Assembly (NCBI GenBank): GCA_037481775.1
Contig: JBBFKZ010000004.1
Coordinates: 1 to 64,000 of the forward strand
Source of the DNA: Candidatus Bathyarchaeia archaeon
GTDB lineage: Archaea > Thermoproteota > Bathyarchaeia > Bathyarchaeales > Bathycorpusculaceae
Reading direction: 5' to 3'
DNA length: 64,000 nt
The translations under genes were made by a program, and so were the position numbers. Positions 12,806-41,951 of this stretch are shown piece after piece; the stretch's first letter is position 1, and each line of letters opens with the position of its first letter. The notes under the pieces are model-generated. The model saw only the letters and a program-made list of their open reading frames with translations, was not told the origin of the DNA and did no database searches.

Positions 12806-13173
12806 ATTAAATTTAATCTTGCCTCCTTAATTGTTTCATTAGTTTTTGTTTCAGTATTGTTCATAGAAATTCATGTTGCTAATGGCGCTAATGCTTCTAA
12901 AGTGTATTATCCAGGATATTTAGATAGCGTCAACGATTTTCTATACACTTACGGATGCAAAAATGGATATGACTACGGCTCCTTCGCAGCCAGCGTCTTC
13001 AAATACCTACTACAAGAAAATAAGCCGGTTAAAGACGCTCTCAATCTTGCATCTATAGAAGTATTCACTGGTGCACCAGTTTTGCCAACAGTCCTCCACG
13101 AACTGGTATCTGGCTTTATGATGGTTGGAGCTACTTACGGGTTTATGGAAACGGGGATGTAATACTGCCTTAA
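12806..13173 (+). pseudogene. Decayed paralog of the secreted protease-like protein at 41025-41951
   Basis: Signal peptide from ATT 12806; VFKYLLQ..VKDALNLAS; -1 frame change near 13071 gives CTSFANSP...LRVYGNGDVILP*, matching the paralog C-terminus; GHG/Cys core absent. Confidence 0.7.
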
Positions 13174-13183
13174 GAGGTGTTGT

Positions 13184-14323
13184 GTGTTGAAAAAAAGATT
13201 TAGGAAGTTTGTGCTCTTTTTAATAGTTGCCGTTATGTTGATGTTGCCGAAGGCATGTGCATTTTCAATAGGAGTTGATGTTAAGGACAAGACATTATCC
13301 TTTTTGAGGGACGTTCTAGAGCTGGACCTATCAAAGTATATGATAAAATTAAGTGATTATTTTATAGAGTACCCTGACGAAGTTACAAAAAACTTACGCG
13401 AAGATGTCACTTACAGTCTTGAGGGAGCTAACAGCCAGATAAGAGCCTCCTGCTTATTCATCAATAAAAGCATGATCTACTGCAGAATGTACGCGGAGCA
13501 AGGTGCTCCCACATATGTTCACGCCCAAGGCAACATCATTAATCGCGTAAGAAATATCCTAGAACGCTACAGAGACTGGTCTGGAGATAGTAGCCTAAAT
13601 GAGATGCTAGAGATGCTTACCCTGGTTGAGCCTAGAAAAAACGTGACTGTGGTCGTTGGAACTTGGAGGTTTACTTTCAAGACCACACCTGAATTCACAG
13701 ATGTCTCTTGGCTATACATGCTCAACGGTGTTACGTATCCCAACTGCCTAGGCGTCAGTTTCGTTGGTAATAACGTTTATTTCCTCGATGAACGCAAACT
13801 TTACACGATAGGTAGCGCCGACGTAAAGACATCTAAAGATGACGCGATAGCAATAGCTTTGAAATACGTTGAAAACTATTCTTTTGAGATTTTCATGGGA
13901 GATCAACCTTCCATTGTGGTTGACGACTTCGGCGTAGTGAAAGAAAAAATAACTGCCGAGTTGTTATCTTGGCCGCGTGAAGAATACATGCTGTATCCTT
14001 ACTGGAAAGTTGACTTGCCCCTTGATAAATTATATCCGGGAAACATATACGAAATATGTGTGAACATATGGGCAGATACAGGCGAGGTCTTCCGCTGTGT
14101 CCCCCTCGGCTTCGGAGGTTCCCTACCTACACAAGACAGTCAACCGGAGCAGACCACAAACTCGCAAGAAAACACCCTTGAATGGACGTTAACTCCCGTT
14201 GTTGTGTTTCTCATCGTATTCGCCATCGCAACAAGCGCTTTAATAATTCACAAATGGAAAAAGCCCCTTTCTCATCATCTTAAGCAACGGCATAACCCGC
14301 CCAGTCAACCCATGAGCGACTAA
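13184..14323 (+). CDS. Secreted, C-terminally anchored protein with PepSY-like domain (paralog of 39865-41022)
   Basis: Signal peptide; IGSADVKTSKDDAIAIA, LYPYWKVDLPLDKLY, IWADTGEV; Q/T/S linker, TM helix, basic tail. Confidence 0.8.
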   Translation: MLKKRFRKFVLFLIVAVMLMLPKACAFSIGVDVKDKTLSFLRDVLELDLSKYMIKLSDYFIEYPDEVTKNLREDVTYSLEGANSQIRASCLFINKSMIYCRMYAEQGAPTYVHAQGNIINRVRNILERYRDWSGDSSLNEMLEMLTLVEPRKNVTVVVGTWRFTFKTTPEFTDVSWLYMLNGVTYPNCLGVSFVGNNVYFLDERKLYTIGSADVKTSKDDAIAIALKYVENYSFEIFMGDQPSIVVDDFGVVKEKITAELLSWPREEYMLYPYWKVDLPLDKLYPGNIYEICVNIWADTGEVFRCVPLGFGGSLPTQDSQPEQTTNSQENTLEWTLTPVVVFLIVFAIATSALIIHKWKKPLSHHLKQRHNPPSQPMSD

Positions 14324-35601: not shown

Positions 35602-35681
35602 CCGCCACGCGCATGTCAGTGCGCTCATTTGTCTGCGTGGAACCTAAAAGCCTATTATCAGCTGGCAACACATCTTCTAAC

Positions 35682-36377
35682 ATGGCAATGGAACCTAAAG
35701 AGTCCGCCGTTTACCTGCAAGATTTATACAAAACGTATCAAATTGGCGAAGTAGAAGTTGAAGTTCTAAAAGGCGTAAACCTAACGGTCGCAAAGGGACA
35801 GTTTGTCGCCATCTGCGGCCCGTCAGGCTCGGGAAAAACAACGTTGCTTAACATTATCAGCGGCATTGATAAGCCTACACGTGGGAAAGCAATAATCTTA
35901 GGACAAGACTTGACAGTTCAGGACGAAGATTTTTTGGCGGAATTCCGATGCAATAACGTGGGATTCGTTTTCCAATCTTACAATCTCGTCTCAACTTTAA
36001 CGGTAGCGGAGAACATCGCTTTCCCAATGGAGTGGAGCCGAAAACCTGAAGAAGAAATAGAAAAACGCGTAGTCGAATTGCTGGAAATAGTGGGATTAAG
36101 GCATAGGGCAAACCATTTTTCCGCTCAATTAAGTGGCGGTGAACAGCAGCGGGTAGCATTTGCGCGTGCCTTGGCCAATGATCCGCTGCTGATTCTTGCT
36201 GATGAACCAACTGGCAATTTGGATGCTAAAAACGGGCAGAAAATCACGCAGATACTGCAGATGCTGAAAGCAAAGGGAAAAACCGTTATTGTAGCAACTC
36301 ATGATCCAGAAGTTACGCGGCTGTCCGACCAGCTACTGTGTTTGGAAGAAGGCACATTGGTGAGTTGTGATGAGTAA
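35682..36377 (+). CDS. ABC transporter ATP-binding protein (LolD/MacB type)
   Basis: [25 protein letters not shown]. Confidence 0.93.
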
Positions 36378-38220
36378 GACGGCTTTTCCAGCAAATGATT
36401 TGCTCCGTAGAAAGTGGCAAACAGGATTAACAGCGGCGACTTTAACATTAAGCGTTGCCTCCACGCTCTTTCTGCTATGCTTCAGCAGGCGAATAGGAAT
36501 TGATGTAGCCCAGTCAGCGACCTCGCTTACTAGCGGCTTGTCAACAGTGTTCTCGCAGTTTATACTATTCATTGGTATTCTGATTTTCGCGGTAGGCGCT
36601 GTGATAACTTCTTTTGTAGTGCTTTTAATGATGAAACAAAGAACTCGAGATTTCGGCCTAATCAAAGCGGCTGGCTGTCCAAACGGACTTGTTTTCTCCT
36701 TCTTCTTAACCGAGCTTCTAATCATAACCCTCACAAGTTGCATTTTAGGCATTGCACTTGGCTATTCAATTGATGTTGCGTTTGCGCATTTTTTCCGTTT
36801 TCAAGCCTATTCGACATCGGAGGATTTGTGGCTTGCTATTCTAGTTTTTGCCGCCTTCTTTGCGCTTGCACTAATATTCGGAGTGAAACCGCTATTGGCT
36901 GCGGCTCGCTTGCCTCCAGTAAACGCGTTGTCGCCCATTCAATACTTCGGTATCAGCGCTGCACGAGCGTACAAGCCTTTATCAAGATCTGGCTTAACGC
37001 TTAGAATTGCCTTACGAAGCATATTCCGACGTCAAGCGGTAAGCGTACGCCTTATTTTGTTGCTTTCAACAGTTTTTGTGCTGCTTACAGTGGCGGTGGC
37101 TGGAGGCATAATCGCTAATGACACCACAAAGGCGTGGATTGAAAGCGCTGTAGGTAAAGACACACTTGTAATAGCCCACAGTAGCATGTGCAGCCAATAC
37201 AAGTTGCTTTTATCCAAATTCGTAGGCGCCGCAGAAAACAGCAAATTTGACTATCTAAACACGCAGTATTCCATAACTGACGCTATGCTTCAACGATTAC
37301 AAGCTATACCGGGCGTGGCCGCTGTCGACGCACGGTTAATCTGTAAAACCCACATCTATGAAGTTCGAAATTTCACAGTTGATCCAGAAACTTTAGCAAC
37401 TATTCCAGTTGGCGACAATCGAGAAGGCGAATCACTAATCATCGGAGTCAACCCAGAAAATGTGGTAACCTCTTGGTGCATCAACGGGCGATTTTTAGCT
37501 GCAGCCAATTCATGGGAAGCTGTAATCGGCGATTCAATAGCGCAAACAATGTTTACACGACCATTAGTTCAAAGCGTCCGCGTATACAACAAGACTTTCA
37601 GTGTTATTGGCGTGTGCGTTGACCCAATCAGCAACGGTAAAGTCATTTACGTTCCACTTAAGCAATTACAAACAATAACAAATAGCCCATATGCGAATAT
37701 TGCGCTTGTTAAAATAACTCCATCAGCTGACCGCGTAGCCACGTTAGCAAAGATAAAAACGGAAGTTCTAAGCTTGAATCCCGCTTTTGCCATATTGGAG
37801 TTAGATGAGATCCTTCATGAGGCGCTTAATTTTCTGGGTTCTGTATGGTCATCCGTCATGCTTCTACCATTGCTTACGTTGGCTTCTGCCGCATTGTGCC
37901 TGATTGGCTATATGATGCTGACAGTTGATGAGCAGCGACAAGAACTTGCGATTTTACGCGCTGTCTGCATTAAACCGAATACGATTATCGCTATTCTCGC
38001 CGTTCAAGTTGTTGTCATTTTGCTTTCAAGTTTTGGCGTTGGAATCTCATTGGGTATAATCGCAACAGTGTTGATTCTAGTGCCTAACCCAGTTGTGACC
38101 AGCCTAACCGTAATAGAAGTTTCCGCTTGGTTATTAGCAGCGTTAGCAACAATGTTTCTTCTCAGCCTCTACCCGGCGATTCGATTCGCCAAAACACCCC
38201 TTCTGAAATTTTTAGTCTAA
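36370..38220 (+). CDS. FtsX/MacB-like ABC permease
   Basis: Two FtsX motifs (RTRDFGLIKAAG, QRQELAILRAV) and an extracellular domain. Confidence 0.88.
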   Translation: MSKTAFPANDLLRRKWQTGLTAATLTLSVASTLFLLCFSRRIGIDVAQSATSLTSGLSTVFSQFILFIGILIFAVGAVITSFVVLLMMKQRTRDFGLIKAAGCPNGLVFSFFLTELLIITLTSCILGIALGYSIDVAFAHFFRFQAYSTSEDLWLAILVFAAFFALALIFGVKPLLAAARLPPVNALSPIQYFGISAARAYKPLSRSGLTLRIALRSIFRRQAVSVRLILLLSTVFVLLTVAVAGGIIANDTTKAWIESAVGKDTLVIAHSSMCSQYKLLLSKFVGAAENSKFDYLNTQYSITDAMLQRLQAIPGVAAVDARLICKTHIYEVRNFTVDPETLATIPVGDNREGESLIIGVNPENVVTSWCINGRFLAAANSWEAVIGDSIAQTMFTRPLVQSVRVYNKTFSVIGVCVDPISNGKVIYVPLKQLQTITNSPYANIALVKITPSADRVATLAKIKTEVLSLNPAFAILELDEILHEALNFLGSVWSSVMLLPLLTLASAALCLIGYMMLTVDEQRQELAILRAVCIKPNTIIAILAVQVVVILLSSFGVGISLGIIATVLILVPNPVVTSLTVIEVSAWLLAALATMFLLSLYPAIRFAKTPLLKFLV

Positions 38221-38907: not shown

Positions 38908-39000
38908 TACTAAAACCTCGGGAAAATGCGTAAATCTGTTAATAAACCCTTATCCTCGCCGCTTATGTCAAACATGCAAGAACAAGCTTTTTGCAAATTG

Positions 39001-39020
39001 GTATACAAAAGCATCAACAA
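39001..39020 (+). repeat. 20-bp dispersed motif, copy 4
   Basis: GTATACAAAAGCATCAACAA; extends as AACACA.TTCT like copy 1. Confidence 0.9.
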
Positions 39021-39247
39021 AACACATTTCTTTCCACGGCCCTCTTGCAAGCTCCGTCTGCCCTTTTATCGTAATAAGACAACTACGCGTCCAATAAACA
39101 TTCTCGTTCGCTATTTGCAAGTTACCTTGCAACTTTCTGTACCGCATAGCCCTCTGACAGGCGCCTTCGCATCTCGTATCATCAAAACAATGGAGGCATT
39201 CGTGAGTTTTAAATAATTTTGTTGTATTTTTCCATAAATTACATGGT

Positions 39248-39296
39248 TAATTTTAACTTTTTAATGTAAAATGTACCCATTCGACAGTTTTTCGCA
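39248..39296 (-). repeat. 49-bp intergenic repeat, copy B
   Basis: 41/49 identity to 31016-31064 in inverted orientation. Confidence 0.8.
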
Positions 39297-39586
39297 GCTC
39301 AAAAGCAAAAGCAATTCTAAAAAAGCACGTGACAGTTACAACCAAACGTTTAAAATAACCCTTTCAACTCTTGCGGAATAGCCCATGTTCCTTCTATTAA
39401 CCTCCAAAATATCATACCATAAGTGTAATTTCACTCAATTTTTGCCACATTTAACATGTCACAAATTTGCCAAACCACTAACTTGCCCTTTAACTAGGCG
39501 CTGAGCACTCACGTATTTATAAGGTTCGCTCATTTTCGACACGTCCGCAGAGAGACAGCGCCAGTTAGGTGTTTTCTGAACAAGTT

Positions 39587-39606
39587 TTGTCTATGCTTTC
39601 GTATAC
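39587..39606 (-). repeat. 20-bp dispersed motif, copy 5 (17/20)
   Basis: Reverse complement GTATACGAAAGCATAGACAA. Confidence 0.75.
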
Positions 39607-39864
39607 GAGAACAGCACTCAAAAAACACGCGATAAGCAAGTGCTGGTTCTGCAACAGGTTAGTATATAGTTACCTTTGAAGGCAAGCGCTAACATATCCA
39701 GAGAATTTGACAGCGCATTTAAGGCTTTGTAGAAAAGCGAAATCTTGCAAGTTAATTGATATCTTGGCATCGGCGTTATTGATTGTTTACATAAGTCTCT
39801 GGTTGCCTCTGCTTTTTAGGGCTAAGGCAGCTATTGATTTAGAAAAAAAAAGAGTAGTGGTTTG

Positions 39865-41022
39865 CTATCTTTTATGCTTACGGAATAAATAGCCTATAAT
39901 TACTGCGGACCCTGCTATCAGTGCAATAGCGATCGCGAGACCAAGATCTAATACTGGTTGAGAGCTGGTTGGTTGGGTGGGATTGGCGGGATTGGATTGG
40001 GTTGCTGGTTGCTGGTTGGTTGGGTGAGGTGAAGAAGCAGTATTTGGATCGCCATAATAGCCTATGGGTGAAATGAACGCTACTTCGCCGGTGTCAGCCC
40101 AAATTCCTACGTGGAAAGCGGTGACGCCGCCAGAATACATCTTGTCTAAAGGCAACCAAATGTCCCAGTAAGGATAAAGCGTATTGTTTCCACGGTTTTG
40201 CAGGCTTATGTTTGCGATTATAGGGCTGCCTAAAACGTTGACGTTCGAAACTGTTTCGTTGCCCACTTGCCATGAATAAGCCCGTGCATGTTCTATGGCA
40301 ATCTGAATGGCTTCCTGCTCTGAAATTTTCACTTCAGCACTGCCTATTTTGAACATATCTAAGTAATCGCAGAAAAACATCAGGTTTCCATCTTTAAATT
40401 CAAGGGTCAGCTTGTTTTGTGGATTGCTGAGGCCGTTAGCAAAAGGTTCCCAGAAAACTCTTACAACGTTTCCGCTAACAGTTATTTCTTGGGTGAAATC
40501 GCCAACGGTAGTTTTTGAACTCTCCAGTTCAGTGACAGCATCTAGCATGCTTCGCAAAGTTGGCAAATAATCTTTTGCTGAAAACGCTTGAAGACTGTTG
40601 AGAGTATCTTTGGCCACGGTAAGAACGTCAGAAGCCTTGGGTGTGGTAAAAGCAGGCGAGCCTTGAACTGGATAAATAGTGCACCAAAACACTGAATTAT
40701 TTCTAATTAGGCAATCTACATCTACCTTGCTTTCAGCAGATCTAAACTTGAAATAAACGGATTTGTCATAGTTAGGTCCTGGACCCTCTACGATTACTCC
40801 TTCTATATAATAACTTGATATGTTAAGCCTAAAAACGTTTGCCACGAATCTCAAGGAAATGTCTTCTAGAAGTTTATCCTGCTCGGTTAAAGGTGTCGGA
40901 GTTAATAGTGGCATACCTGGCGAGGGCACCCTACCCGCACTCGCTATGCTTGCAAAAGACGCTATCAAAAGCGTCACAAACAAAAGCGTCACAAAGTTTT
41001 TTTCTATTTCACTCATTTGCAT
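39865..41022 (-). CDS. Secreted, C-terminally anchored protein with PepSY-like domain
   Basis: Signal peptide; VKISEQEAIQIA, LYPYWDIWLPLDKMY, IWADTGEV; P/Q/T/S linker, TM helix, RKHKR. Confidence 0.8.
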   Translation of the reverse strand: MQMSEIEKNFVTLLFVTLLIASFASIASAGRVPSPGMPLLTPTPLTEQDKLLEDISLRFVANVFRLNISSYYIEGVIVEGPGPNYDKSVYFKFRSAESKVDVDCLIRNNSVFWCTIYPVQGSPAFTTPKASDVLTVAKDTLNSLQAFSAKDYLPTLRSMLDAVTELESSKTTVGDFTQEITVSGNVVRVFWEPFANGLSNPQNKLTLEFKDGNLMFFCDYLDMFKIGSAEVKISEQEAIQIAIEHARAYSWQVGNETVSNVNVLGSPIIANISLQNRGNNTLYPYWDIWLPLDKMYSGGVTAFHVGIWADTGEVAFISPIGYYGDPNTASSPHPTNQQPATQSNPANPTQPTSSQPVLDLGLAIAIALIAGSAVIIGYLFRKHKR

Positions 41023-41024
41023 TC

Positions 41025-41951
41025 TCACTCCATGTAAAACAAAGTAGGCAAATACGTGTTGAACGGGTTACCGCAAACATTCATCCTTCCCGTCCACCAT
41101 CCAGATTGGTTATAGTATGGAGGGTGATTATAGGGATAGTATGTCCAATAACGTCCACTATCACCCAGTGCTGAACTAGCAAAGTCTTCAAAACCAACTG
41201 CTTGGGAAGCTCGGTTAAGAGCAGCCATCACGGAATAGCCGTTCAAGGCGTAGTAGTAGAAGAAAACAAGCCAGTGTCGAAACAGGTTCCCAGGAGACAT
41301 TTGGTCACATAGCCAAGGAGAAGCGTCATTGAAGCCTACCCAAGTATATGGCGGGTAAGCAGGTGGGTTGCTCCACCAGAGGGGGTTCCATGCGGTGGGT
41401 GACCCTTGAGGTGCATTGTTTCCACCCATGCATACCCACATAAGGACAAATTGATGGGTGGGAGAAAACTGTGTACGCGCTTGAATCTCAGTGAAACTGA
41501 CCAGAGGGGGAAATATGTTTGGATCGTTTGGATAGTCAGTGTGAACATAAAAGCCTTGGGATCCGCCATGTCCAACATAGAGAACAGACGAAAAATCAGA
41601 ATGATACACATTCACGTGCTCGATTCGGGTATACACAGTATACGGCGTTGCGGCCGATCCCCAATTTGTCACTTCACCGTAGGCAGGACCATAATAAACC
41701 CAACATTGATAGATTTCATCCCAGTAATAGGCACCTCCGGTACTTGCGAAGAGGTTTGCGATTTGCGTAAAGGCTGTCCATGTATGCTCAGCATTACCGT
41801 TCCAATCCATCCAATTGGTAGTGTATAGATTGATTGCATAACCGTAATCATTGTCGTACGCTTTTACTGCAGGCATTGTTGCTGTCAAGGCGCTGCATAG
41901 CAGAAGCATCAATAGAATTATGCTGATAGCAACATAATTGTTTTTGCTCAT
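41025..41951 (-). CDS. Secreted protein with clan CD (caspase/gingipain-like) cysteine protease motifs
   Basis: Signal peptide ending AVKA; SVLYVGHG and FVLMWVC strand-His/strand-Cys motifs; C-terminal VCGNP; function inferred. Confidence 0.65.
   Translation of the reverse strand: MSKNNYVAISIILLMLLLCSALTATMPAVKAYDNDYGYAINLYTTNWMDWNGNAEHTWTAFTQIANLFASTGGAYYWDEIYQCWVYYGPAYGEVTNWGSAATPYTVYTRIEHVNVYHSDFSSVLYVGHGGSQGFYVHTDYPNDPNIFPPLVSFTEIQARTQFSPTHQFVLMWVCMGGNNAPQGSPTAWNPLWWSNPPAYPPYTWVGFNDASPWLCDQMSPGNLFRHWLVFFYYYALNGYSVMAALNRASQAVGFEDFASSALGDSGRYWTYYPYNHPPYYNQSGWWTGRMNVCGNPFNTYLPTLFYME

Follow-up and report, generated by a model that had tools for sequence, protein, structure and literature searches.

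We identified a two-gene module, here called A and B, in a 64,000-nucleotide stretch of the genome of a Bathyarchaeia archaeon (hereafter the window, to which all coordinates refer). Structure prediction and conservation across a large protein family suggest that gene A encodes an exported enzyme of the caspase-hemoglobinase (clan CD) fold, a candidate cysteine peptidase, and that the neighbouring gene B encodes a predicted membrane-anchored protein with three PepSY-like domains. On the basis of fold, conservation and gene linkage, we propose that A is a clan-CD-type peptidase and that B binds it as its keeper, a reading to which we assign a probability of about 0.5.

Both genes, together with the features described within and immediately after them, lie on the minus strand. 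Gene A (41025..41951) encodes 308 residues from an ATG start, and gene B (39865..41028) encodes 387 residues from GTG. The TGA stop of A overlaps the GTG start of B (GTGA). An alternative ATG six bases past this GTG would give a B of 385 residues, the length first annotated, and the Atlas record of B begins at this ATG. An open reading frame (ORF) scan of the window recovered both genes at the positions first given for them. Homologues at an expectation value (E) of 1e-3 or below number 21 for A, found by word-index search and either unnamed or labelled as hypothetical proteins of Bathyarchaeota, Bathyarchaeia or Nitrososphaerota, and 67 for B, which are of similar length and carry the same taxonomic labels. 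These homologues, and the conservation of two residues of A described below, indicate that the ORFs are more than chance. A run of nine T located 14 nucleotides past the stop of B (39843..39851) is a candidate archaeal terminator.

Protein A begins with a signal-peptide-like segment (residues 1-31, 41859..41951) comprising a basic n-region and a hydrophobic core and ending in PAVKA followed by YD. In the structural model this leader forms a helix (residues 3-24), with a predicted local distance difference test score (pLDDT) below 50 at residues 22-29, and the homologues keep a hydrophobic leader that ends in (V/A)xA. We read it as a Sec signal peptide, by which A would be exported. The motif SVLYVGHG ends at His128 (YVGHGG; codon CAT, 41568..41570) and FVLMWVC ends at Cys174 (codon TGC, 41430..41432), giving a spacing of 46 residues between the proposed catalytic His and the proposed catalytic Cys. 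The protein is very rich in aromatic residues (5.8% Trp and 10.8% Tyr).

In an alignment of A with its close homologues, all 22 sequences share H117, G127, H128, G129, W172 and C174. A profile of A matched 605 proteins among 1.84 billion cluster representatives at E<=1e-3, 392 of them at E<=1e-10. The counts given for the wider family, both for these residues and for the fusions described below, refer to 171 A-containing sequences and draw on the best 150 of the 605 profile matches. In the 171-sequence profile alignment Cys174 is kept in 133 of the 133 rows that cover the region (161 of 161 non-gap rows) and His128 in 127 of 133, in a family whose mean column identity is only ~22%. The His and Cys singled out in the initial annotation are thus conserved both among close homologues and widely. 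The spacing between them has a median of 49 residues and a range of 35-71 across the family.

Two further residues were considered and rejected. His117 is invariant among the close homologues, but the wider family has H, Y or F at this position, and it is therefore excluded as a catalytic residue. The VCGNP motif near the end of the protein (residues 292-296) had been listed as a notable feature; its Cys293 is mostly Ala in homologues, with only the neighbouring Gly294 invariant, and a functional role for this Cys is dismissed.

An AlphaFold2 model of A, built from the 22-sequence alignment, has a pLDDT of 87.1 and a predicted template modelling score of 0.85. Foldseek comparison of this model with the PDB gave 74 matches at E<=1e-3, with SAVED-CHAT, caspases and MALT1 among those listed. 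Realignment of Foldseek candidates with VIA-align gave Z scores of 15.3 for CHAT (8tl0_C; 192 residues, root-mean-square deviation (rmsd) 3.8), 14.4 for the gingipain RgpB (4ief_D), 13.1 for MALT1, and 12.7 for both legumain and caspase-7. A scan of 48,161 representative PDB chains, made independently of Foldseek, placed only caspase-fold proteins at ranks 1-33 (Z 14.9-8.5; CHAT 14.9, legumain 12.5). These ranks include CHAT, paracaspase, gingipains R and K, legumain, asparaginyl ligases, metacaspases and caspases, as well as PIG-K, separase, DdvA, GSU0716, Raptor, c-FLIP and C11 enzymes. The matches at Z 8.5-7.6 include a few chains whose kinship is uncertain (axonemal central-apparatus chains and a type VI secretion system effector complex), and plainly unrelated folds, such as a proteasome subunit and a cutinase, appear only at Z<=7.0. 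Foldseek, VIA-align and the 48,161-chain scan therefore agree on the caspase-hemoglobinase fold proposed in the initial annotation.

The structural alignments of A with clan CD proteins cover 185-204 residues at an identity of just 7-15%. In the model, His128 follows directly on the strand formed by residues 121-126 and Cys174 follows directly on the strand formed by residues 166-172, with one helix between them. In the predicted structure, His128 and Cys174 are thereby placed and ordered like the catalytic dyad of clan CD, a topology consistent with adjacent side chains. Z values across the clan CD families differ by less than 3, so A cannot be assigned to C25, C14, C13 or CHAT. As judged from the model, A represents an unassigned family of the caspase-hemoglobinase fold, and we consider it highly probable that it is a clan-CD-type enzyme, although this designation is putative.

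Sequence searches do not place A in a named family. It has no match in Pfam or NCBIfam at E<=10, and no clan-CD Pfam family was detected on the A domain in 54 long and 60 short relatives. It fails membership of the named clan-CD Pfam families (C25 gingipain, C14 caspase, C13 legumain, C11 clostripain and CHAT). The first description of A as caspase- or gingipain-like therefore holds at the level of the fold, but not as sequence membership of C25/gingipain or of the caspases. Searches against PDB sequences returned nothing relevant for A with phmmer and no match at E<=10 for the A profile; in these searches, A and B between them matched only ESAT-6, chlorophyll-binding and G-alpha proteins, all at chance level. 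A word-index search with a wider alignment of 61 sequences returned 27 proteins, none with a Pfam domain, and the only informative source name among these 27 was one 'choice-of-anchor J domain-containing protein'.

Protein B also starts with a signal-peptide-like segment (residues 1-31, 40936..41028), which ends in SIASA followed by GR and is modelled as a helix (7-30) that leads into a low-confidence stretch. Its sequence suggests a Sec signal peptide and hence export of B. Three PepSY-like domains follow in succession, each modelled as a unit of helix and sheet. Domain 1 (approximately residues 48-124, 40657..40887) consists of a helix (49-64) and then four strands, and the alignment with YpeB spans residues 48-322. 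Domain 2 (approximately 133-223, 40360..40632) has helices at 135-163 and strands at 171-221. Domain 3 (approximately 230-326, 40051..40341) carries the motifs KISEQEAIQIA and IWADTGEV, and W310, A311, D312, T313, G314 and E315 are invariant or nearly so in 40 B homologues. The next segment (327-382, 39883..40050) contains a conserved PIGxYG, a low-confidence linker rich in P, Q, T and S, and a hydrophobic helix (360-382) of 23 residues, LDLGLAIAIALIAGSAVIIGYLF. This is followed by the basic tail RKHKR (383-387, 39868..39882), which would be cytoplasmic by the positive-inside rule; the consensus tail of the homologues is YKRKR, and their alignment shows a variable linker and then a conserved hydrophobic block. 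The motifs, linker, transmembrane-like segment and basic tail first noted in the pair are thus all present.

The model of B has a pLDDT of 84.6, with values below 50 at residues 330-363 and a terminal helix at 362-386. Foldseek gave four matches at E<=1e-3. The top match is the C-terminal domain of YpeB (5boi), which comprises three PepSY domains (E 7.2e-9), two others are chains of the vibriolysin MCP-02 propeptide (3nqy_A, 3nqz_A), and one is an uncharacterised protein of Eubacterium; next, at E 3.5e-3, comes the fungalysin propeptide 4k90_B. In VIA-align the whole ectodomain aligned with 5boi at Z 9.0 over 210 residues, with an rmsd of 8.1 that indicates a different arrangement of the domains. 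Residues 47-223 aligned with 4pw1_A (Z 8.7), and the matches of domain 2 also include the propeptides 4k90_B and 3nqy_A (Z 6.4). The best single-domain matches were those of domain 3, to CD1622 (4exr; Z 8.7, rmsd 1.8, 65 residues) and YpmB (2gu3; Z 7.5, rmsd 2.3). Domain 3 thus superposes on solved proteins of the PepSY fold, in which one helix packs on a four-stranded antiparallel sheet. The Z values for 5boi, CD1622 and YpmB barely exceed the background of 7-8 quoted for the tool, and we assign B as PepSY-like because all of its top fold matches agree on PepSY-type proteins and because of the sequence motif. On the predicted structure, B is a triple, YpeB-like PepSY array by fold, not by Pfam membership. 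The initial annotation had proposed a PepSY partner, which stands in the former sense and fails in the latter: B has no match in Pfam or NCBIfam at E<=10, and searches of the PDB sequences by phmmer and by profile returned nothing relevant.

The two families are consistently found together, as the initial annotation had anticipated for other genomes. Of the 24 loci examined, 23 have B next to A or fused with it. The 24 comprise the window itself (A followed by B), nine loci in other Bathyarchaeia genomes (A followed by B in 9/9), three loci with other A paralogues of the source genome (A followed by B in two), and 11 loci from genomes of the same phylum, returned out of 46 non-window phylum matches of the A profile. 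Among these 11, six have A followed by B, three encode single-ORF B-A fusions of 684, 693 and 1019 residues, and two have B followed by A as separate ORFs. An all-versus-all comparison of ORFs from ten loci (the window and the nine other Bathyarchaeia loci) showed that only A and B are common to at least three of them, which indicates that the pair is a self-contained module in varying contexts. The linkage of A and B is 'obligate', one-polypeptide precursors included.

The source-genome paralogue at the 24th locus (L011, G000:C2:47411-50968; ORF 973-2064) is a 364-residue protein whose match to the A profile is confined to the C-terminal half (146-298). Its N-terminal region of ~180 residues is unassigned, and the protein has no Pfam match.

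Among the 171 A-containing sequences, 36 cluster representatives hold the two modules, invariably in the order B and then A. In 35 of these, the B ectodomain is separated from the A domain by two hydrophobic segments with a short loop between them that typically contains 3-7 Lys/Arg; 33 of the 35 have a small-x-small motif (for example PKVRA, PQVNA or PTVKA) before the A domain. From this layout we read the common fused form as the membrane helix and cytoplasmic tail of B joined to the signal peptide of A. Cleavage of such a precursor by signal peptidase would give the same two products as the operon in the window. The remaining fusion (P0231, 1126 residues), the sole one that lacks the hydrophobic hairpin, joins the B module directly to A and has PKD domains after it. 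Long relatives carry extracellular modules C-terminal to A, namely PKD, dockerin, InlB B-repeat, PEGA, DUF2341, LamG/pentraxin, FG-GAP and CBM.

We propose that A and B form a translationally coupled module that would yield two extracellular proteins in equal amounts. A would be a Sec-exported enzyme of ~277 residues with a conserved His-Cys dyad, most likely an active clan-CD-type cysteine endopeptidase. B would likewise be exported and would be retained in the membrane by its C-terminal helix, displaying its three PepSY-like domains on the outer face. There B may bind A at the cell surface as a dedicated keeper that holds it folded, docked and/or inhibited, a role modelled on the PepSY-containing propeptides of M4/M36 peptidases and on YpeB-SleB. 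Binding of A by B and inhibition or chaperoning by B are suggested here by analogy with those systems. Prediction of a complex between A (32-308) and B (45-328), from alignments that we supplied, gave 0.26 and 0.01 against a mark of 0.32 and counts neither way.

Of 401 genomes sampled from the phylum, 20 contain a match to the A profile, the genome of the window included. The others are 12 of 25 genomes of the same family, five from other families of the same order and two from elsewhere, often with several matches each. Several studies of hot springs and sediments yielded metagenomes that contain near-identical DNA. In contigs of three runs from three other metagenome studies (X3, X5 and X6), the single-base differences listed are concentrated in gene B and in the spacer past its end, with none at 40509-41790, which covers most of A, and a few at the 5' end of A (41791-41912). 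This pattern, in which synonymous and non-synonymous changes are pooled, suggests stronger constraint on A than on B. One hot-spring metatranscriptome run (X20) contains a 151-nucleotide contig that is 100% identical to 41503-41653, a segment that includes the codon of His128. We regard this contig as a weak hint that gene A is expressed.

The window contains a second copy of the module, in which the A-like gene has decayed. On the plus strand, a remnant that lacks the His/Cys core (12830..13180, with profile matches in two frames) lies directly upstream of an intact B paralogue of 379 residues (13184..14323; B profile E 1.8e-85, no Pfam match). This copy sits downstream of SUF-like ATP-binding cassette (ABC) genes and upstream of tRNA-Arg and tRNA-Ile.

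Several observations weigh against our reading of A as a peptidase and B as its keeper. No sequence-level tie links A to any characterised peptidase, or B to the Pfam PepSY family. In a Pfam scan of 40 B homologues, PepSY was found in 1/40 (E 0.071) and DUF4901 (the YcdB/YcdC repeat) in 2/40 (best E 7e-4), all below the cut-off. The position of His128 lacks a His in 6 of 133 relatives of A, and no conserved charged residue stands out in the family alignments as an S1 determinant. The paralogue at L011 has no B within the fetched 1.5-kb flanks, and the source genome holds more copies of B than of A (~7 versus ~4). The A gene is in four pieces at one of the Bathyarchaeia loci (L002) and in two at another (L005), with B in one frame at both, and at a third (L003) A is cut to its C-terminal third and B is broken only near its C-terminus. 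The decayed remnant in the window matches the A profile at positions 215-258 (E 2.3e-7) and 283-303 (E 5.5e-5), in a search space of three sequences only. The intact B genes beside broken A genes, together with the excess of B copies, indicate that B need not depend on its neighbouring A. Evidence of expression consists of the single metatranscriptome contig, for which DNA carry-over is possible, and the rest of the stretch is uncovered in that run. A stop also splits A at two of the 11 loci from the same phylum (L026 and L031). Some breaks in A may be assembly errors, but the two large truncations are not.

The locus was first described as a candidate effector-immunity system, in which A would be a secreted antagonistic protease directed at the envelope of competitors and B an outward-facing, membrane-anchored immunity protein of the producer. 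The toxin-like order of A and then B with overlapping codons, the topology of B, which suits guarding of the outer face of the membrane, and the occurrence of several paralogous pairs per genome are consistent with such a system. The intact 'orphan' B beside a decayed A resembles orphan immunity genes, and an in-frame stop interrupts 11 of 47 A-family matches of related genomes, although breaks of this kind in metagenome-assembled genomes may partly be assembly errors. However, we detected no delivery apparatus, polymorphic-toxin domain or conserved neighbour, either at the loci or in the flanks of the window. A and B frequently form one precursor with B first, and in one case are fused directly; such one-polypeptide precursors fit a prodomain or keeper better than an immunity protein. 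The dockerin, CBM, PKD and LamG modules on fused relatives also typify substrate-binding exoenzymes. Apart from the intact B beside the decayed A, which fits it, the effector-immunity label finds no specific support, and we judge it unlikely. Alternatively, A may be a maturation peptidase or transpeptidase that cleaves or re-attaches B, for example at PIGxYG, or acts on other surface proteins; B would then be a target of A and not its regulator. PIG-K, a subunit of the glycosylphosphatidylinositol transamidase, and asparaginyl ligases are among the fold matches of A (Z 11.3-12.1), the end of B (motif, low-complexity linker, hydrophobic helix and basic tail) resembles a sorting signal, and dedicated enzyme-substrate gene pairs are common. 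Against this, the hydrophobic helix of B is internal in 35 of 36 precursors, where a loop and a second hydrophobic segment follow it, and does not form a C-terminal signal. A long, variable linker separates PIGxYG from the helix, A itself lacks a membrane anchor, and the faint Gram_pos_anchor matches that might favour a sorting signal (2/40 B homologues, E 0.27) are at chance level. We regard a processing enzyme and its substrate as similarly improbable.

A further possibility is that A is a caspase-fold binding or scaffold module and that its pairing with B makes up a non-proteolytic assembly at the surface, structural or adhesive in function. The non-enzymatic caspase-fold proteins Raptor and c-FLIP (protease-like domain) are among the structural matches of A (Z 9.5-9.7), relatives of A are embedded in adhesin-like multidomain proteins, and the activity that we propose for A follows from fold and conservation. 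Yet the retention of Cys in 133 of 133 and of His in 127 of 133 sequences of a family with ~22% identity is hard to explain without catalysis. The invariant Cys makes a non-catalytic role unlikely, and we consider this the least probable of the alternatives. The proposal that A is a clan-CD-type peptidase attended by B is the one that we prefer.

The flanks of the module contain genes unrelated to it. Upstream lie genes for a MobA-like nucleotidyltransferase and a ParA/MinD-like ATPase, and downstream lies a gene for a NERD/Mrr-like nuclease. The ~960 nucleotides between B and the nuclease gene (38908-39864) contain only short ORFs (<=96 residues); a search of this gap returned no tRNA and no Rfam family over threshold, with one chance-level match (Ysr35, 17 bits against a threshold of 428). 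Scans for sigma-70 promoters and terminators, with a model unsuited to archaea, were at background (7 versus 7.2 expected, and 4 versus 3.6 expected). Convergent to the nuclease gene, on the plus strand at 35613-38220, is a MacB-type ABC pair consisting of an ATPase of 254 residues and an FtsX/MacB_PCD permease of 617 residues. This pair is not kept beside the A-B module in other genomes.

In sediments, Bathyarchaeia rank with the most abundant archaea, and detrital protein is thought to be part of what sustains them. In this context, the excerpts available from the literature discuss extracellular peptidases of the gingipain and clostripain types for this group. The A family is invisible to Pfam, NCBIfam and PDB sequence searches, and peptidase inventories of Bathyarchaeia therefore miss it, although it comprises 605 cluster representatives (E<=1e-3) and occurs in several copies per genome. 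The initial annotation knew of no description of the pairing in archaea, and our literature search agrees: it found no paper on a pairing of PepSY with caspase-like enzymes or others of clan CD, nor any such system in Bathyarchaeia, though subscription journals or supplements may hold one. The logic of a protease with a PepSY keeper is already familiar; what is new is the caspase-fold family, the action in trans from a membrane anchor and the precursor with an internal signal peptide. We tentatively suggest that the module belongs to an unrecognised extracellular protease system of Bathyarchaeia, in which a clan-CD family would be governed in trans by a membrane-tethered triple-PepSY protein, made either from a coupled operon or from a precursor split by an internal signal peptide, and that the DUF6345 family and its neighbour in bacteria and other archaea may be of the same kind. 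So far, the PepSY domain has been associated with YpeB and with the propeptides of metallopeptidases. Should B act as a keeper in trans, this type of regulation would reach from metallopeptidases to caspase-fold cysteine peptidases, and the precursors would clearly illustrate how, in nature, an internal signal peptide can deliver equal amounts of an enzyme and of the membrane-bound protein that regulates it.

Comparison with clan CD peptidases indicates that A has the same alpha/beta/alpha fold over ~190-200 residues (Z 12-15) as CHAT of SAVED-CHAT (8tl0), the C25 gingipains RgpB and Kgp, the C14 enzymes MALT1, caspases and metacaspases, legumain and PIG-K (C13), separase (C50) and clostripain (C11). 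As in these proteins, a His-Gly follows one central strand and a Cys follows the next, in the order His and then Cys, and the spacing of 46 residues presumably falls near those of clan CD families. In contrast, A has no similarity to these families, to the Pfam clan-CD models or to PDB sequences at the level of hidden Markov models (HMMs). The A protein of the window also differs in being a minimal domain of ~277 residues without a prodomain in cis, in its richness in aromatic residues and in the lack of an evident conserved charged S1 residue.

The closest counterpart of B is YpeB of Bacillus (5boi). The ectodomain of B aligns with three tandem PepSY domains of YpeB, and B is a predicted membrane-anchored accessory protein encoded beside a secreted hydrolase, as YpeB is for SleB, a lytic enzyme of the spore cortex. 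Stabilisation between YpeB and SleB is mutual. B differs from YpeB in the arrangement of its domains (rmsd 8.1 A), in the lack of a sequence match and in its archaeal host. The anchor of YpeB is N-terminal, whereas that of B is C-terminal, and the partner of YpeB is a lytic transglycosylase, whereas that of B is like a cysteine peptidase.

B also resembles the FTP-PepSY propeptides of M4/M36 peptidases, including those of MCP-02 (3nqy/3nqz) and Aspergillus fungalysin (4k90_B), with Foldseek E of 1e-5 to 3.5e-3 and VIA Z of 6.2-6.4. In M4/M36 enzymes, such propeptides are established as inhibitors that also serve as intramolecular chaperones (Yeats et al. 2004 and Gao et al. 2010, cited in PMC6393860). 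The directly fused protein P0231, with its B module immediately N-terminal to the A domain, is propeptide-like in this respect. Unlike these propeptides, B is paired with a putative protease of another catalytic class and fold, and it is a separate membrane-anchored polypeptide; even in the fusions, 35 of 36 have a hydrophobic-loop-hydrophobic hairpin instead of a cleavable N-terminal extension.

Finally, protein-language-model features indicate that the named family nearest to A is DUF6345 (PF19872; score 0.95, 194/256 features). DUF6345 is itself uncharacterised, and our literature search found a single mention of it, in passing. The PF19872 HMM matches neither A nor any of the 114 relatives scanned, and no match to it was found in the source genome at E<=1. 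Comparison by hhalign of the A family with six DUF6345 sequences gave a probability of 1.5% (E 0.035), with GHG aligned to GHG and Cys to Cys, and comparison of the B family with five DUF6345 neighbours gave 4.2%. The DUF6345 alignments are small and come from one phylum, and with such low probabilities the kinship of A and DUF6345 is not established. DUF6345 is present over the cut-off in 7 of the 401 phylum genomes, at loci other than those of the A family. Like A, it carries a strand followed by GHG and a strand followed by AC. At all five single-gene loci (L033 and L035-L038), DUF6345 is followed by a protein of 304-366 residues with an N-terminal hydrophobic leader, and two of these five neighbours have sub-threshold matches to YycI or DUF4901. 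A sixth locus (L034) encodes a 694-residue fusion composed of the partner, a helix, K/R residues, a signal-like segment and DUF6345. The same logic of an enzyme with its partner thus seems to occur in a second family that is at best very distantly related to A, and the A-B module offers a testable function for DUF6345 and its neighbour.

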